44,996 bases of DNA from a virus: the UHGV virus genome UHGV-0278542; one strand, 5' to 3'. The notes under the pieces were generated by a model, which searched no databases, was not told where the DNA came from, and saw only the letters and a program-made list of their open reading frames with translations. Of this stretch, positions 31,225-36,838 are shown one piece after another; positions within the stretch are counted from its first letter, which is position 1; each line of letters begins with the position of its first letter. The translations under genes were made by a program, and so were the position numbers.

Positions 31225-31515
31225 TCATTGCCTTACCTCCATAAGCGCCCTATTAATAAACGCCGTCATTGGATTTGCACATCCCCACCCCGTACCATCT
31301 GGATTTCTTTTAATTGGCTCCTTCTTCACTTTGCGTTTTGCATAAATAACCGTCTTCCACTTACGCTCAACAACACTCAAATGCCCTTGTTTCACCATAT
31401 GCCTTGCTGCTTGAGCGATTCTGTTATTTGGTATTCCGGTAATCAGTGCTAATTCATGTGGGGAGAATTGTTCATGAGTTTTCAGATATTCCAGGATGAT
31501 TTCTTTTCCAGTCAC
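31225..31515 (-). CDS. ren: Ren-like protein
   Basis: 96-aa ORF beginning MTGKEIILEYL... (GTG start), resembling my recollection of lambda Ren; immediately follows the replication genes. Confidence 0.5.
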   Translation of the reverse strand: MTGKEIILEYLKTHEQFSPHELALITGIPNNRIAQAARHMVKQGHLSVVERKWKTVIYAKRKVKKEPIKRNPDGTGWGCANPMTAFINRALMEVRQ

Positions 31516-32357
31516 GATCTGCTCCTGTAACTATCCCATGTAAACGCAAGGGTGCATCCGCCGCCATCATTCATCCTGTCAATAACACGCTCACCAATGA
31601 ATGCAGACAGTTCATCTTTGCTCTGGTTGCTAATCAGGATTGTTGGCTTCATGCGCTCGTAGCGGGTGTTGATGATTTCGAACATGATCATCTTTTCCGC
31701 CTCGCTTCCAAACTGCACACCAACCTCATCGATAATTAGCAGGTCAGGTTTAGTGAACTGTCGGATCACTTCATCCTCTGTGCGGGTGGAGTTTTTCGAC
31801 CATGTTGATTTATATTCTCTGGCAATTTTCAGCGCCGTTGTGAAAATAGCTGAGCTTTGATGTTCCGTAATTGCGTGCCGGGCGATAGCCAGTGCAAGAT
31901 GATTCTTTCCAGTACCAGGCTTTCCACACATAACCAGCCCACCGCCTTTCTGTAACCTCTCAGGCCATTTGCTGGCGTATGCCTGACACACCCTGAGCAC
32001 TCTCTTTGCATCGTCGTTGACTGGCTCGTAGTTCTGTAGTGTGCAACCCTTGAATCGTTCAGGAATATCAAGATTATTCAACAGAAACTCGACATTGCGC
32101 TTACGTGATTCCTCGTCGATTTTAATCTTCTCTGCCTGTAGCCGAATAAGCTCATCTCTCATGCATTCCGGGCATTCGCTAGGTCTTGAGGCAAACTTAA
32201 TTGGCCCAGTCGAGTAACGGTTACGCTGCTCAAACTCACCATGTTTTTCACAGATGCCAGTGCCAATTTCTACAGCTGTATGCTCGATAGCAATTGGCGG
32301 AGAACTCAATTCTGCAAGCTTTTTCTCCAGTTGGGAGATCTTTTCATCCAGCGTCAT
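31512..32357 (-). CDS. DnaC-type helicase loader (occupies the position of lambda P)
   Basis: Walker A GKPGTGKNHLA and Walker B LLIIDEVG; ATG at 32357 with AGGAG RBS. Confidence 0.75.
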   Translation of the reverse strand: MTLDEKISQLEKKLAELSSPPIAIEHTAVEIGTGICEKHGEFEQRNRYSTGPIKFASRPSECPECMRDELIRLQAEKIKIDEESRKRNVEFLLNNLDIPERFKGCTLQNYEPVNDDAKRVLRVCQAYASKWPERLQKGGGLVMCGKPGTGKNHLALAIARHAITEHQSSAIFTTALKIAREYKSTWSKNSTRTEDEVIRQFTKPDLLIIDEVGVQFGSEAEKMIMFEIINTRYERMKPTILISNQSKDELSAFIGERVIDRMNDGGGCTLAFTWDSYRSRS

Positions 32358-32359
32358 GT

Positions 32360-33202
32360 TCACTCCTGCGCCCATGAAGGCATTTCAGTTTGTCCGTAAT
32401 CTTTGGTGGCAAAGTTTTCCTGCATAGCTCTATGCTGCGGCCTCGGTTGAGATTTCCCCTTTGGAGTCTTGGGCTCAAAAATCCCCTGCCAACCACTGGC
32501 GATGCTCTGGTTTATAATTTCTTCAGGTGTATATCCCTTCTCCAGACTTCTGCTTAGAACGTTGATAGCCTGAGTGACACTTTGCTTAGACTTGATCGAC
32601 TTACCTATCTCCTTGCGATAGGTAACCCACGACAACCATGTTTCTGCTGATAACCAATCAGGCAACTCTGTTTCTAGCGGGTCGAACTTCTGAGAAACTT
32701 TTTTGGGGGATATAGGGGGTTTATTAATATTTTCTTTTGTCTTTAAAGAATGTCTTTTGTGTGTCTCTAACTTCGAGACATTGAGTGTCTCTAATTTGGA
32801 GACATTCTTTGTCTCTAACTTCGAGACAAAGTTGCTAACTTGGAGACACTTGCTGAATTGCCACGCAGATACCTCACTGTTTACACCGATTTGATTTCCA
32901 TCCATAAACAGGCAATTCATTGAAATCAGTTCTTTTTTAGCCTTGTTAACATTCTGCCTTGACAGTCCTGTTAACTGAGCAATTTGCTCATCGGCTATTC
33001 GATCTGTTTTCTTATTGAATCCATATGTTTTCCGGACGTAGGCCAGCATAACTTTCAACTGGCGAGCGGTTAAATCGGCACTTGCGATAGCTTCCAGCAG
33101 CTCGTTAGCGAATCTGGTGTAACCATCATCGATATCAGCCACTCTTCGCTCCTGTTCAACAGGTTCACTCTTCGGCAGGTAAAATACTTCAGCCAGGCTC
33201 AT
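32360..33202 (-). CDS. O: Replication initiator O-like protein
   Basis: N-terminal RRVADIDDGYTRFANELLEA...RQLKVMLAYVRKTYG resembles lambda O; iterons lie inside the coding region; ATG at 33202 with GGAGG RBS. Confidence 0.7.
   Translation of the reverse strand: MSLAEVFYLPKSEPVEQERRVADIDDGYTRFANELLEAIASADLTARQLKVMLAYVRKTYGFNKKTDRIADEQIAQLTGLSRQNVNKAKKELISMNCLFMDGNQIGVNSEVSAWQFSKCLQVSNFVSKLETKNVSKLETLNVSKLETHKRHSLKTKENINKPPISPKKVSQKFDPLETELPDWLSAETWLSWVTYRKEIGKSIKSKQSVTQAINVLSRSLEKGYTPEEIINQSIASGWQGIFEPKTPKGKSQPRPQHRAMQENFATKDYGQTEMPSWAQE
32762..32848. repeat. Origin iterons: three 19-bp palindromic repeats (tgtctctaa(c/t)tt(c/g)gagaca) plus a partial fourth, next to an AT-rich stretch (about 32700-32760)
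   Basis: Direct repeats at 32762-32780, 32786-32804, 32810-32828 and partial 32833-32848, located inside the O-like gene as in lambda ori. Confidence 0.75.
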
Positions 33203-33833
33203 TTCCAACCTCCGCATCAAAGCATTGGGCTTCAAGAGACTTAACCATCACCACACTGCCATCTGTATTAATAACTATCGATGAGTTATATTTGCTTATC
33301 AGTTGCTTCGCGTAATCAATTCCGGCGCGAATAAGGAAATTTTTCACCGCAGGAAGATGACCAACTACACTACCCAGACCTTGCTCTATAAGCTCCTCAT
33401 TAAGATCAAGCTCATTTTCATGGCGAAAAGAAATGAATGAGTCGTAAATTGCGTATTCTGCCGTCTCGCCATTTCTTTCAGGGCCAACCAGCGCCCTTAT
33501 TTCATTTAGAGATTCAGAAAGCTCATTATCTTCAAGCTTGAAAAACTCTCGATTATCACTAAGCCTCTCTTTTGCAAAGGCTTTATGAATGAGTTTTTCA
33601 TCTGATGCGGGATTATTTGAATGAAAGGCAGCTATCACCTTAAATGGCTTAGGAACGCCAGTAGAGGCTGAAATTTCTTTAGCCCTAACTTCTGGTGAAT
33701 GCTTAGTCATCCCAATCTTATAAATTCCTGGCATGCACTCATTCGAAAGCACATAAACAAAGCCATTTGATTTAAAATCATCTGGCACCTTCATGCTCTT
33801 CAGAACCTGGAATTTGTCATTTTCGTATGTCAT
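33189..33833 (-). CDS. T5orf172/GIY-YIG-like domain protein (214 aa) inserted between cII and O
   Basis: N-terminal NGFVYVLSNECMPGIYKIGMTKHSPEVRAKEISASTGVPKPFKVIAAFHSNNPASDEKLIHKAFAKERLSDNREFFKL fits the T5orf172-type pattern; AGGAG RBS; 3' end overlaps the O start by 14 nt. Confidence 0.55.
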   Translation of the reverse strand: MTYENDKFQVLKSMKVPDDFKSNGFVYVLSNECMPGIYKIGMTKHSPEVRAKEISASTGVPKPFKVIAAFHSNNPASDEKLIHKAFAKERLSDNREFFKLEDNELSESLNEIRALVGPERNGETAEYAIYDSFISFRHENELDLNEELIEQGLGSVVGHLPAVKNFLIRAGIDYAKQLISKYNSSIVINTDGSVVMVKSLEAQCFDAEVGNEPG

Positions 33834-33867
33834 AATTACTCCTGTGGATTGATCCAGTCTTTCTACA

Positions 33868-34146
33868 TCAGGCCTCGAAGAATTCGCCGTTCTTCGGGGC
33901 TTTTTCTTTTATCAGCATTCTGGCTACTTGCTTAGCCAGTTCCGCCAACTCCTCGTCTTCAACACCCCATTCAAGAACAGCCAGAAGCATGGCCATCTTT
34001 GGGATAAAGCTGTCTTTCCATCGCGAAATTTGCGATTCATTAATCCCTAACGCGTCGGCAACCTTTCGCTGACCACGTACAGCAATTCGATTCAGGATGT
34101 TGCTTGTAATTGCATTCGCTTTCTTGCGAGTACTTGTAAGTTGCAT
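33868..34146 (-). CDS. cII: Transcriptional activator CII-like
   Basis: ATG at 34146; ...GINESQISRWKDSFIPKMAMLLAVLEWGVEDEELAELAKQVA resembles lambda CII; located between nutR/cro and the replication genes. Confidence 0.65.
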   Translation of the reverse strand: MQLTSTRKKANAITSNILNRIAVRGQRKVADALGINESQISRWKDSFIPKMAMLLAVLEWGVEDEELAELAKQVARMLIKEKAPKNGEFFEA

Positions 34147-34225
34147 ATGTAAGTATTTCCTTAGATAACAATTGATTGAATGTATGCAAATAAATGCATA
34201 CACCATAGGTGTGGTTTAATTTGAT

Positions 34226-34257
34226 GCCCTTTTTCAGGGCTGGAATGTGTAAGAGCG
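34226..34257 (-). promoter_or_regulatory. nutR (boxA CGCTCTTACACATTCCA, boxB GCCCTGAAAAAGGGC)
   Basis: Reverse-strand sequence matches lambda nutR boxA/boxB, directly downstream of cro. Confidence 0.85.
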
Positions 34258-34264
34258 TGGTTAT

Positions 34265-34474
<210 letters not shown>

Positions 34475-34491
34475 TTAGTACATGCAACCAT

Positions 34492-34555
34492 TATCACCGC
34501 CAGAGGTAAAATAGTCAACACGCACGGTGTTAGATATTTATCCCTTGCGGTGATA
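34492..34555. promoter_or_regulatory. Right operator OR1-OR2-OR3 with divergent PR (to cro) and PRM (to cI)
   Basis: 17-bp sites at 34492-34508 (OR1, tatcaccgccagaggta), 34516-34532 (OR2) and 34539-34555 (OR3) match lambda operators. Confidence 0.9.
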
Positions 34556-34562
34556 GATTTAA

Positions 34563-35279
<717 letters not shown>

Positions 35280-35429
35280 TGGGCAAGGTGTTCTGGTCGG
35301 CGCATAGCTGGTGAAAAAATTATTTAATGCGGTGTATTGGCTGATTGTAACCCCATGTAACATCTTGCCGTCACCATTTCGGTGGTTAGATTTTTAATAA
35401 AAAAAAACAAATGTATAGCAAGGTTTTTT

Positions 35430-35909
35430 ATGGATAAAATTAATTACCCACCCCTGTTTGAGCCAGGGTTCCATGACATGGATGAAGCTGGATTAAAATC
35501 GTATTGTGTCGATTGCTTTCCTTCATCATCCAGGCGAGGCATGCTATACTGTAATTTTATACAGCTACTCGAATCTATTCGAGAATTATCTGCTCAATAT
35601 GGCTGTTTTACAGAAATATGGGTTGATGGTTCATACACCACGTCTAAACCAGAGCCTGATGATATTGATATTTTGTTGGTATGTGACTATAGCAATATAA
35701 ACTCAATACCTGTCATGCTTCGGGGCCGCGTCGATAATTTGCTTGACCGAAACTACATCAAACAAAACTACAAAATTGATGTCCTACTACTCATGAAGAA
35801 TTTAGATGACCCTAACTATGATTATGAGTACTGGCGTAGTTACTGGCGCGGTTGGTTTGGTTTTGATCGCAGTGAAAACCCGAAAGGGTTAGTGAGGATT
35901 TTTTTATGA
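35430..35909 (+). CDS. Hypothetical protein with a minimal nucleotidyltransferase-like motif, first gene of a two-gene operon in the rexA position
   Basis: ATG at 35430 with AAGG RBS (track ORF starts at 35382); motif EIWVDGSYTTSKPEPDDIDILLV fits hG[GS]-x9-DxD; AT-rich; co-oriented with and downstream of cI. Confidence 0.55.
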   Translation: MDKINYPPLFEPGFHDMDEAGLKSYCVDCFPSSSRRGMLYCNFIQLLESIRELSAQYGCFTEIWVDGSYTTSKPEPDDIDILLVCDYSNINSIPVMLRGRVDNLLDRNYIKQNYKIDVLLLMKNLDDPNYDYEYWRSYWRGWFGFDRSENPKGLVRIFL

Positions 35910-36838
35910 ATGATAAATCAATGTTTAAAAATTGCGATAAACGCATTGATTTCATTCAAAAAGAAGTCGATGCAATGAAGCAAAACAAAACCAGGTCCTT
36001 TGCTGACATGCTTCTTTATCGCTCCATGGATTCTCATCTGAGCGATTTGAAGGCCGAAAAATTAAAGCAAGATAGTCGGCACCCACTTATCGATTTTTTT
36101 GAGCTGCGGCTGAAAGGCTCTGAGGTTGACTTTGGCTCTATTCCTTTAGAGCTGCTTGGGGCTATTTCAACAAATCTTGCAGCGCTAATACAAAGAGCAA
36201 CACACAAAATTGCCTCAGGCAAGGACTCAAAAAAAGTTCCCTACGACGTGAAAAGCTCCTTAAACCTCAGGCTGGCTGATTTATCCCCTGGGTCTACAAA
36301 ATTGGGCGTCACCTTCTCTACAGGAATAGCAGAATTAGTAGAAACAGTACCCAGCAAGGCTGTAAAAGGCATATTCGATTTGTTGTTAAGCGATGACGAC
36401 AACAACTTCATGAATCACGTCGCTGAAATTGGATACAATTCCACTGTAAGCCTTAAGAGAATCGTAGAGGAATGCGATAAACACAACTTAACATTTGATG
36501 CAAGTTGGACCGGTCCATTTAGTAATGGCACCAAGGTGGCAACTATTGACTCCAATAAAATTAAGTACTTGGTGAGTAGACTTACATCAACCATTTCATC
36601 CCCTCCCATTACTGAAACGGTTACAGGCGAACTGGTCGTTCTATCCAAATATGGGAAGCTGGAGCTTGATGTTGGTGGTGAACATTTAAAGGCTTCCTAT
36701 CCGATTGAAATGCTAGATTTAATACAAAAAAAACACAAGGTCGGACAGATTGTTTCTCTTTTAGTGGAGACTACTGAGATTCACAATGATCGCATAGGTC
36801 TGTACCGTAAAAACCATCTTGTTAAATCGGTTCTTTAA
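35906..36838 (+). CDS. Hypothetical protein (310 aa), second gene of the operon in the rexB position
   Basis: ATG at 35906 overlaps the upstream stop (ATGA), GTGAGGA RBS; no recognisable motif beyond a single Rx4H (YRSMDSH). Confidence 0.55.
   Translation: MNDKSMFKNCDKRIDFIQKEVDAMKQNKTRSFADMLLYRSMDSHLSDLKAEKLKQDSRHPLIDFFELRLKGSEVDFGSIPLELLGAISTNLAALIQRATHKIASGKDSKKVPYDVKSSLNLRLADLSPGSTKLGVTFSTGIAELVETVPSKAVKGIFDLLLSDDDNNFMNHVAEIGYNSTVSLKRIVEECDKHNLTFDASWTGPFSNGTKVATIDSNKIKYLVSRLTSTISSPPITETVTGELVVLSKYGKLELDVGGEHLKASYPIEMLDLIQKKHKVGQIVSLLVETTEIHNDRIGLYRKNHLVKSVL

Follow-up and report, generated by a model that had tools for sequence, protein, structure and literature searches.

The viral genome UHGV-0278542 (44,996 nucleotides (nt), called the window below) carries, between its cII-like gene and its O-like replication initiator gene, a gene for a 214-amino-acid (aa) protein of the T5orf172 nuclease family. 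This gene, its homologues and the genomic place that they occupy are the subject of the present analysis. The part of the window from 31.5 to 35.3 kb is a lambdoid prophage immunity and replication region with the early-right operon on the minus strand, and its immunity region, including cI, cro and the promoter PR, is 99.8% identical to that of lambda. The features concerned are as follows:

33189..33833, minus strand: nuclease gene of the T5orf172 family, 214 aa plus stop codon, ATG start (list of open reading frames (ORFs), Pfam, PHROGs)
33498..33764, minus strand: N-terminal predicted catalytic T5orf172/GIY-YIG domain, residues 24-112 (Pfam)
33204..33488, minus strand: acidic C-terminal orphan domain, approximately residues 116-210 (AlphaFold, charge, searches)
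33158..33827, minus strand: cassette missing from empty-site alleles, comprising the gene body and 45 nt of a replacement O N-terminus (alignments)
33834..33867, minus strand: cII-O leader ACTGGATCAATCCACAGGAGTAATT, now the ribosome-binding region of the nuclease gene (alignment with N7 and lambda)
33868-34206, minus strand: ORF of the cII-like activator, probable gene 33868-34146 (279-nt RefSeq annotation of the identical locus)
32360..33202, minus strand: O-like replication initiator with a variant N-terminus (PHROG 678, 'replication initiation O-like', E=4e-81)
31512..32375, minus strand: DnaC-like helicase loader, the next gene of the replication module (ORF; annotation of the homologous locus in Bas106 and RefSeq)
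34265-34465, minus strand: cro, in the immunity region
34490..34518, minus strand: PR promoter TTGACT-17-GATAAT, reading into cro-cII-nuclease-O (promoter scan)
34566-35279, plus strand: cI, in the immunity region
33870..33902, plus strand: oop-like antisense terminator hairpin in the 3' end of cII (14-pair stem and T tract)

An earlier note, made from the sequence alone, had described a 214-aa gene wedged between cII and O whose 3' end overlaps the start of O by 14 nt, and the ORF coordinates together with the O start codon annotated in RefSeq for identical loci (ATG at 33202) give exactly this overlap, 33189-33202. The cII gene, annotated in the identical RefSeq locus as a 'lambda phage CII family protein' of 279 nt, is separated from the nuclease gene by a gap of 34 nt. 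No consensus promoter was found by the promoter scan between PR and the start of the nuclease gene, and no terminator-like site was found on its strand, which agrees with the placement in the PR operon that the note had proposed. A promoter-like site inside the gene (33552-33525) was rejected as chance level, since 3 such sites were found and 2.9 were expected, and an Rfam scan of 32000-36000 gave nothing credible and no match to the oop model. This gene order is most naturally read as early expression along with the replication genes, the gene being transcribed only as part of the early-right operon (PR-cro-cII-nuclease-O-dnaC-like), and O is, judging from the overlap, a candidate for translational coupling to the nuclease gene.

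The note had also recognised a T5orf172-type pattern (GFVYVL, IYKIGMT, LIHKAF, REFF) in the N-terminal part of the protein, and profile searches support this assignment. The protein matches Pfam T5orf172 (PF10544) over residues 24-112 with E=1.4e-15 and 58 bits against a cut-off of 20, and MUG113 (PF13455) over residues 38-111 with E=7e-16 and 59 bits against a cut-off of 22.3. Its AlphaFold model has a GIY-YIG alpha/beta fold, and the top structural matches are Slx1 and HIGLE, structure-specific nucleases that share 11-13% sequence identity with it. The motifs lie on invariant columns of the family, including G24, Y27, K39, G41, T43, R50, E53, H83, R90, E96, F97 and F98; among 45 aligned family sequences, down to 25% identity, Y27, K39, G41, T43, R50, E53, H83, R90 and E96 are unchanged and Y38 is nearly invariant. 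By comparison with characterised GIY-YIG and T5orf172 enzymes, the invariant residues are the likely catalytic and metal-binding positions, and mutation of the equivalent glutamate was reported to abolish function (PMC10448857; bioRxiv 10.1101/2025.11.03.685801). Because the profile scores exceed their cut-offs, the predicted fold is of the GIY-YIG type and the catalytic-type residues are in place, the gene product is assigned to the T5orf172/GIY-YIG superfamily. RefSeq names the identical protein 'GIY-YIG nuclease family protein' (the cluster representative, P0001, is 99% identical), and PHROGs places it in families 8430 and 16524, both of unknown function. A search of NCBIfam gave a sub-threshold Maf-like match only, and a whole-protein sequence search against the PDB gave nothing, its best hit (SecD, E=1.1) being spurious. 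We infer that the protein is active as a DNA endonuclease and is produced, alongside the replication proteins, at an early stage of the lytic cycle.

The C-terminal part of the protein is of a different kind. Residues 116-210 are confidently predicted by AlphaFold to form an alpha/beta domain, and for residues 116-214 no match was found in Pfam, the PDB or BFVD, either by sequence or by fold. A phmmer search with the C-domain against 1.84 billion representatives returned four matches, namely one fragment, one family member and two weak ones, the latter to very long proteins with many matched stretches. The domain has a net charge of -9 and an isoelectric point (pI) of 4.4 in the window protein, and all members examined have an acidic C-domain (pI 4.1-5.9, net charge -2 to -12); across the family the N-domain ranges from neutral to acidic. 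Comparison with the 84%-identical homologue at locus L035 gave ratios of nonsynonymous to synonymous substitution rates of 0.10 for the N-domain and 0.08 for the C-domain, close to 0.09 in both, and since purifying selection on the C-domain is thus as strong as on the nuclease domain, it should be functional. Co-variation of the C-domain with the class of the adjacent initiator, as for an initiator-specific adaptor or a gene-specific DNA reader, was tested and none was found: one homologous C-domain family spans O, 'MARSRN'-type, HTH_36 and L037-type initiators, and the domain therefore tracks neither the initiator protein nor the sequence of the initiator gene. A protein-binding or regulatory adaptor appears more natural for it than a DNA-reading module.

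In phage N7, which has the same cII and O alleles with 98.5% identity, and in lambda (J02459), cII is followed directly by O, as the earlier note had stated for lambda; mEpX1 also lacks the gene. The cultured P22-like phage CurroJimenez_Bas106 carries a 100% identical protein at the same place (Bas106_0049, annotated as hypothetical). Alignments with N7, Bas106 and lambda are collinear through the leader, ...ACTGGATCAATCCACAGGAGT(A/C)ATTATGACA, and then diverge; homology with empty alleles resumes inside O at GAACAGGAGC.... The left junction of the cassette lies directly after the shared ATGACA, and the leader differs from the O leader of N7 by one base (shown in the junction above), closely matches that of lambda, and recurs in conserved form before the family members of Pantoea, Klebsiella and Enterobacter. 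The nuclease gene has thus taken over the ribosome-binding site and the first two codons of O, and the ribosome-binding site of O is now a GGAGG within the end of the nuclease gene. This is no clean insertion, for the 670-nt cassette (33158-33827) stands in for 42 nt of the empty allele (O codons 3-16) and contributes 15 replacement codons to O, whose N-terminus reads MSLAEVFYLPKSEPV in the window and MTNTAKILNFGRGNFA in the empty allele. Outside its first 15 residues, the O protein of the window is 94.6% identical to that of N7.

The presence and absence of the cassette were surveyed in 5426 complete Escherichia coli genomes. Among the 47 genomes with this O allele, 19 contain the cassette and 28 are empty; occupied and empty alleles have O flanks that are 98-100% identical and identical boundaries, and in all 28 empty alleles homology restarts at one base, position 33157 of the window. 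The variant O N-terminus is always accompanied by the nuclease gene in these 47 genomes. To the right of the cassette a single O allele was found throughout E. coli, and on its left the cassette occurs next to at least three different cII and immunity contexts, with breakpoints in the leader, inside cII or further out. The GC content is 0.406 for the nuclease gene, 0.437 for O and 0.459 for the window, and the synonymous divergence between the window and L035 is 0.97 for the nuclease gene and 0.35 for the adjacent O. The comparison of cII-O junctions therefore revealed an indel relative to lambda, N7, mEpX1 and the 28 E. coli prophages, and because all of these do without the gene, it is neither universal nor essential for replication, which leaves the earlier view of an inserted gene standing. 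The indel and the varied left contexts together indicate a dispensable gene that is exchanged at the classical mosaic joint between immunity and replication modules.

The junction that the cassette interrupts is itself strongly conserved. In its uninterrupted form it is 74 bp long (leader plus first 15 O codons) and was found at 80% coverage or more in 1344 of the 5426 E. coli genomes, at 1969 places, Stx phages included, almost always with at least 95% identity; it thus ranks among the most conserved pieces of lambdoid DNA. We take the junction in lambda to be the 5' end and the promoter of the antisense oop RNA, with a presumed -10 element CATAAT, the complement of ATTATG at the start of O, and a presumed -35 element TTGAGT in O codons 7-9. 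The hairpin at 33870..33902 lies, in the alignment, at the position of the lambda oop terminator sequence and is taken here as an oop-like terminator, the lambda sequence being in agreement with that of oop. The oop-like unit of the window covers 33826-33902 on the plus strand, and its -10 element CATAAT overlaps the nuclease start codon.

The cassette is inserted between the oop -10 element and the former -35 element. The -10 element is retained in 16 of the 17 occupied loci examined (CATACT in the exception), and the former -35 position is occupied, at 18-nt spacing, by CTGGAA or CTGGTA in close relatives and by TTGCTT, TTGCAA or TTGAAG in distant ones. This weak substitute (xTGxxx) derives from the Gln codon of residue 9, which is common to most family members and sits in an otherwise variable and disordered nuclease N-terminus. 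The insertion may alter the control of oop and cII. The initiator N-terminal peptide xTAE[I/V]LxFP (compare TNTAKILNFG of lambda O) is kept 3' of the nuclease gene, and it is common, within the first 10 codons, to otherwise unrelated initiators (L008, L036, L037 and the window). A short junction module thus appears to be conserved independently of the remainder of the initiator, and the overlapping oop promoter may be the reason. The nuclease gene splits the conserved junction, and both halves persist in most of the homologous loci examined.

Homologues of the nuclease were found well beyond E. coli. Prophages of Pantoea, Klebsiella aerogenes and other Enterobacterales carry homologues over the full length (211-217 aa) that are 52-84% identical, and a second tier (33-37% identical over the full alignment, approximately 220-250 aa) is found in Enterobacter, Mixta, Dryocola and others; in both groups, every inspected locus has a cII-like or YdaT-like regulator on one side of the gene and a replication initiator on the other. 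Genes of Salmonella phage S107 and Proteus phage Brookers, at the same position, aligned in tblastn over the nuclease domain only, and their C-domains nonetheless belong to the common C-domain family (E<1e-3). Nuclease-domain relatives occupy the same position in Paraburkholderia, Azotobacter and Pseudomonas prophages, and in Burkholderia phage KL4 a 132-aa version abuts an O-like gene that is followed by DnaB. The best 80 loci of IMG/VR comprise 74 in-group genes and six short out-group proteins located elsewhere. In 73 of the 74 in-group loci a replication initiator is the next gene downstream, the single exception being a contig end. The downstream-ORF scan admitted starts between 90 nt upstream and 250 nt downstream of the nuclease stop, and in the 72 loci scored the initiator starts no more than 12 nt past that stop, in most cases with a gap of 0 to 12 nt or an overlap; in one further locus (L119) the called start of the initiator ORF overlaps further. 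The 72 initiators comprise approximately 41 of the 'MARSRN' type, 19 of the O type (PF04492), 9 that are HTH_36/DnaD-like, 2 of the L037 type and 1 DUF1376 protein, and the PHROGs names for all these classes are replication initiation, primosomal or helicase-loader proteins.

Further observations concern the relatives and the neighbouring genes. The relatives of 230-250 aa (L010, L016-L020, L059-L108; P0029-P0040) end in a conserved tail, GIYGPxxPxEF, and some end in ...DFDDAPF, ...SDDSDIPF or ...EPIPF; the window protein has no such tail. Tails of this type resemble the C-terminal tip (DDDIPF) of bacterial single-stranded DNA-binding protein (SSB). A 202-aa metagenomic protein in ENA (P0032), considered as a nuclease-O fusion because the last 66 nuclease residues are joined by a frame change to the O N-terminal domain, is most likely an assembly or frameshift artefact. 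In the prophage of E. coli 0H15 (NZ_CP081677), an unrelated 266-aa HNH endonuclease (PF01844; L038, 2701-3501) occupies the same slot in the order cII, HNH, initiator and DnaC-like gene. It follows a related leader, GGAGTTAATTATG, and is separated from the initiator by 11 nt; in other prophages the same cII allele is followed by DUF2740 or hypothetical genes. The prophage of E. coli E400634, which has the same cassette, carries two annotated HNH genes flanking ninB in the nin region (L004, 6846-7457 and 7943-8470), and these are further nuclease genes at module joints. Within the O gene of the window, a run of repeats of the type TCTCTAACTTCGAGACA / TCTCTAATTTGGAGACA at 32755-32850 encodes VSKLET repeats and presumably represents an iteron-type origin, as in lambda. 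Directly downstream of cI, where lambda has rexA and rexB, genes for a 175-aa protein (Pfam DUF6932) and a 310-aa protein lie at 35382-36838 on the plus strand; the pair matches a PADLOC two-gene candidate (PDC-M63A, E=2e-41; PDC-M63B, E=7.5e-45), is 99.6% identical in mEpX1, and has the appearance of a candidate defence module that replaces rex and is expressed together with the repressor.

Based on these results, the role ranked first for the gene, with a probability of roughly 0.38, is that of a boundary nuclease, selfish or competitive, with early expression from PR. The gene, presumably for a catalytically competent T5orf172-type endonuclease, is an optional first cistron of the replication module, and its product would behave like a free-standing homing endonuclease when the phage grows lytically in a cell with a second lambdoid genome. 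It would cut cassette-less DNA at or near the conserved leader/O-start junction that the cassette splits; repair by recombination would transfer a copy of the cassette, along with the neighbouring replication genes, to the rival, or else the rival would simply be excluded. The allele that carries the cassette is proposed to be protected because its junction is interrupted and the first 15 codons of O are replaced, and since the protein is acidic and no DNA-reading domain can be recognised in it, targeting would probably depend on a protein partner bound by the C-domain. Free-standing homing endonucleases have a target-site logic with which the replaced start of O and the pattern of occupied and empty alleles agree; as a potential target the empty junction is both abundant (1344 genomes) and constrained, and the HNH endonuclease in the same slot of the 0H15 prophage is supporting evidence. 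It was proposed that T5orf172 genes are phage homing endonucleases adjoining essential genes at boundaries of genetic exchange (PMC10448857), and it was reported for SNIPE that a nuclease domain of this kind cuts DNA, with targeting dependent on an adaptor domain (bioRxiv 10.1101/2025.11.03.685801).

Several points weigh substantially against a boundary nuclease of this kind. No DNA-binding domain was found in Pfam, the PDB or BFVD, and the whole protein is acidic across the family; approximately 87% of the surveyed T5orf172 homing endonuclease genes carry zinc-finger DNA-binding domains (PMC10448857). The relatives from Burkholderia and Paraburkholderia consist of the nuclease domain alone (132-146 aa) and still lie directly before O, and the initiator-adjacent position is constant over five unrelated initiator classes, from Enterobacterales to Burkholderiales, a fixed niche that a sequence-targeted homing element does not easily explain. 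Occupancy is low, with 19 genomes against 1969 places with an empty junction, and in E. coli the cassette is always found with one O allele, which is not the signature of efficient drive. Literature searches for the gene, for Bas106 gene 49, for PDC-S57 and for GIY-YIG genes at the lambdoid cII-O junction gave no functional study, no description of the initiator-adjacent niche, and no cleavage or homing data for the family. Because presence/absence polymorphism was found and a DNA-binding module was not, the protein is not filed here as a homing endonuclease.

The missing DNA-binding domain in an acidic protein, the nuclease-only relatives, the constant niche and the low occupancy with its linkage to one O allele favour the main rival, which we consider a serious though tentative possibility. 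The protein would be a stand-alone, replication-associated, structure-selective nuclease of the Slx1/URI-like kind, produced in stoichiometric amounts with the initiator; protein contacts, through the acidic C-domain or, in relatives, a C-terminal docking tail, would bring it to forks or other branched intermediates. Variants of the proposal, made with the same reserve, have it process forks or the theta-to-sigma transition in aid of phage replication, or sabotage host forks. It is consistent with the adjacency to an initiator of any class, seen at all but one of the 74 in-group IMG/VR loci and at genome and phage loci of Enterobacterales, Pseudomonas, Azotobacter and Burkholderiales, with Slx1 and HIGLE as the best structural matches, with an acidic protein that has no sequence-reading domain, and with strong purifying selection across deep divergence. 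The single C-domain family over several initiator classes would point to a host or common partner rather than to an initiator-specific one. The GIYGPxxPxEF tail of the 230-250-aa relatives, with its likeness to the SSB tip, also speaks for this rival. However, the gene is dispensable, being absent from 28 of the 47 prophages with the same O allele and from lambda, N7 and mEpX1. Gene order in lambdoid phages is conserved in any case, so that the adjacency in Enterobacterales may be inherited synteny, and the window protein lacks the docking tail. A wider proposal, which we regard as possible but less likely than not, is that the T5orf172 clade from E. coli lambdoids to Burkholderia phages is an integrated and conserved partner of phage replication initiation and not a homing element, produced along with the initiator and recruited through the acidic C-domain or the SSB-tip-like tail to the host replisome or SSB interactome, where it would cut forks or origins in order to switch the mode of replication or shut down host or rival replicons.

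Exclusion of competing replicons in the manner of ICP1 Odn is less probable still, and we consider it quite unlikely. The adjacent initiator, or a DNA-binding protein related to it, would bring the nuclease to the origins of other lambdoid phages, satellites or plasmids. The tight coupling of the nuclease gene to the initiator gene is compatible with this, and the PHROG 8130 profile (434 positions) matches the N-domain of 'MARSRN'-type initiators at its positions 11-102 (E=3.5e-15) and the T5orf172 domain of the window at positions 181-257 (E=1.8e-7), which suggests that natural fusions of the two domains exist; Odn is such a chimera and cuts a satellite origin (PMC10448857). The fusion is, however, deduced from profile coordinates alone, the C-domain does not co-vary with initiator class, and the phage's own initiator would steer the enzyme to its own origin inside O (32760-32830).

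A lysogen-protecting function in anti-phage defence or superinfection exclusion, with the protein as a relative of PDC-S57 or PD-lambda-1/SNIPE, is improbable. PADLOC profiles of PDC-S57 (E=4.5e-29) and of the C-terminal nuclease of PD-lambda-1 (E=4e-12) match the protein, and prophages often carry defence genes, as with the PDC-M63 pair beside cI here, but both matches are confined to the T5orf172 domain (residues 21-113), covering profile positions 3-94 of 212 and 355-450 of 496, respectively, and the transmembrane segment and DUF4041 of SNIPE are absent. Lacking both a promoter and a terminator of its own and lying between cII and O inside the cI-repressed PR operon, the gene is expected to be silent in the lysogen, and this position argues against a defence gene expressed there. 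Very improbable is a domesticated, non-cutting T5orf172 protein, for which CapR is reportedly a precedent as a repressor, or a gene kept for a cis effect on oop and cII, for although its 5' end replaces the antisense oop -35 element with the weak xTGxxx of the Gln9 codon while the -10 element is kept, the invariant catalytic-type residues and the strong purifying selection on both domains fit an enzyme and not a cis element, and the protein is acidic, unlike a DNA-binding repressor.

Taken as a single window, the locus holds an ordinary accessory phage nuclease, and the family-level pattern, which spans five initiator classes in Gamma- and Betaproteobacteria, is more useful. Not contained in the earlier note are the exchange of the first 15 codons of O, the initiator-adjacent family, the acidic C-domain and the argument from the cI-repressed operon against a defence gene active in the lysogen. 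Should the protein be a homing or exclusion nuclease, recombination at the immunity/replication boundary, the best-known mosaic joint of lambdoid phages, would gain a concrete mechanism; should it instead help replication or kill replicons, it would be an unrecognised player in lambda-type replication. Since the cultured phage Bas106 has an identical copy and natural empty-site relatives are available in N7, mEpX1 and lambda, these readings are directly testable.

Compared with known systems, the protein shares parts with several. SNIPE/PD-lambda-1 contains a homologous T5orf172 domain, but its C-terminal nuclease is joined to a membrane anchor and DUF4041, whereas the 214-aa protein has the nuclease domain only; for lack of the anchor and DUF4041 it is not assigned to that system. 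PDC-S57 is similar in length and also has the domain at its N-terminus, but the match stops at residue 113, and the gene is situated in a phage early-lytic operon rather than in a bacterial defence locus. The available part of the NixI preprint mentions T5orf172 only in connection with CapR, not NixI. The URI-type nucleases Slx1 and HIGLE match the protein in structure at 11-13% sequence identity, and it has no RING or Slx4-binding module. ICP1 Odn, in which T5orf172 is fused to a RepA_N-like domain, likewise links such a nuclease to a replication-initiator module, but here nuclease and initiator are separate genes, and no initiator-like region was found in the nuclease by Pfam or PHROGs.

The putative T5orf172 homing endonuclease genes of ICP1, T5-like and other phages (Barth, Dunham & Seed 2023, PMC10448857) share with the present gene the Pfam domain with intact catalytic-type residues, the free-standing position beside an essential gene at an exchange boundary and the presence/absence polymorphism. 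They differ in that approximately 87% of them carry CapR, DUF723 or DUF4397 zinc fingers and that they lie at scattered sites, whereas the present family has an acidic orphan C-domain or none and keeps to one fixed niche directly 5' of the initiator. Seg-type endonucleases of T4 and I-TevI are alike in architecture, with an N-terminal GIY-YIG domain of approximately 90-100 residues followed by a C-terminal domain in a total of approximately 200-250 aa, and in the intergenic, free-standing position with altered neighbouring sequence in the nuclease-bearing allele. The sequence is already present in RefSeq and in a cultured phage, and it is a known nuclease module with an unusual acidic orphan domain and a fixed genomic niche.

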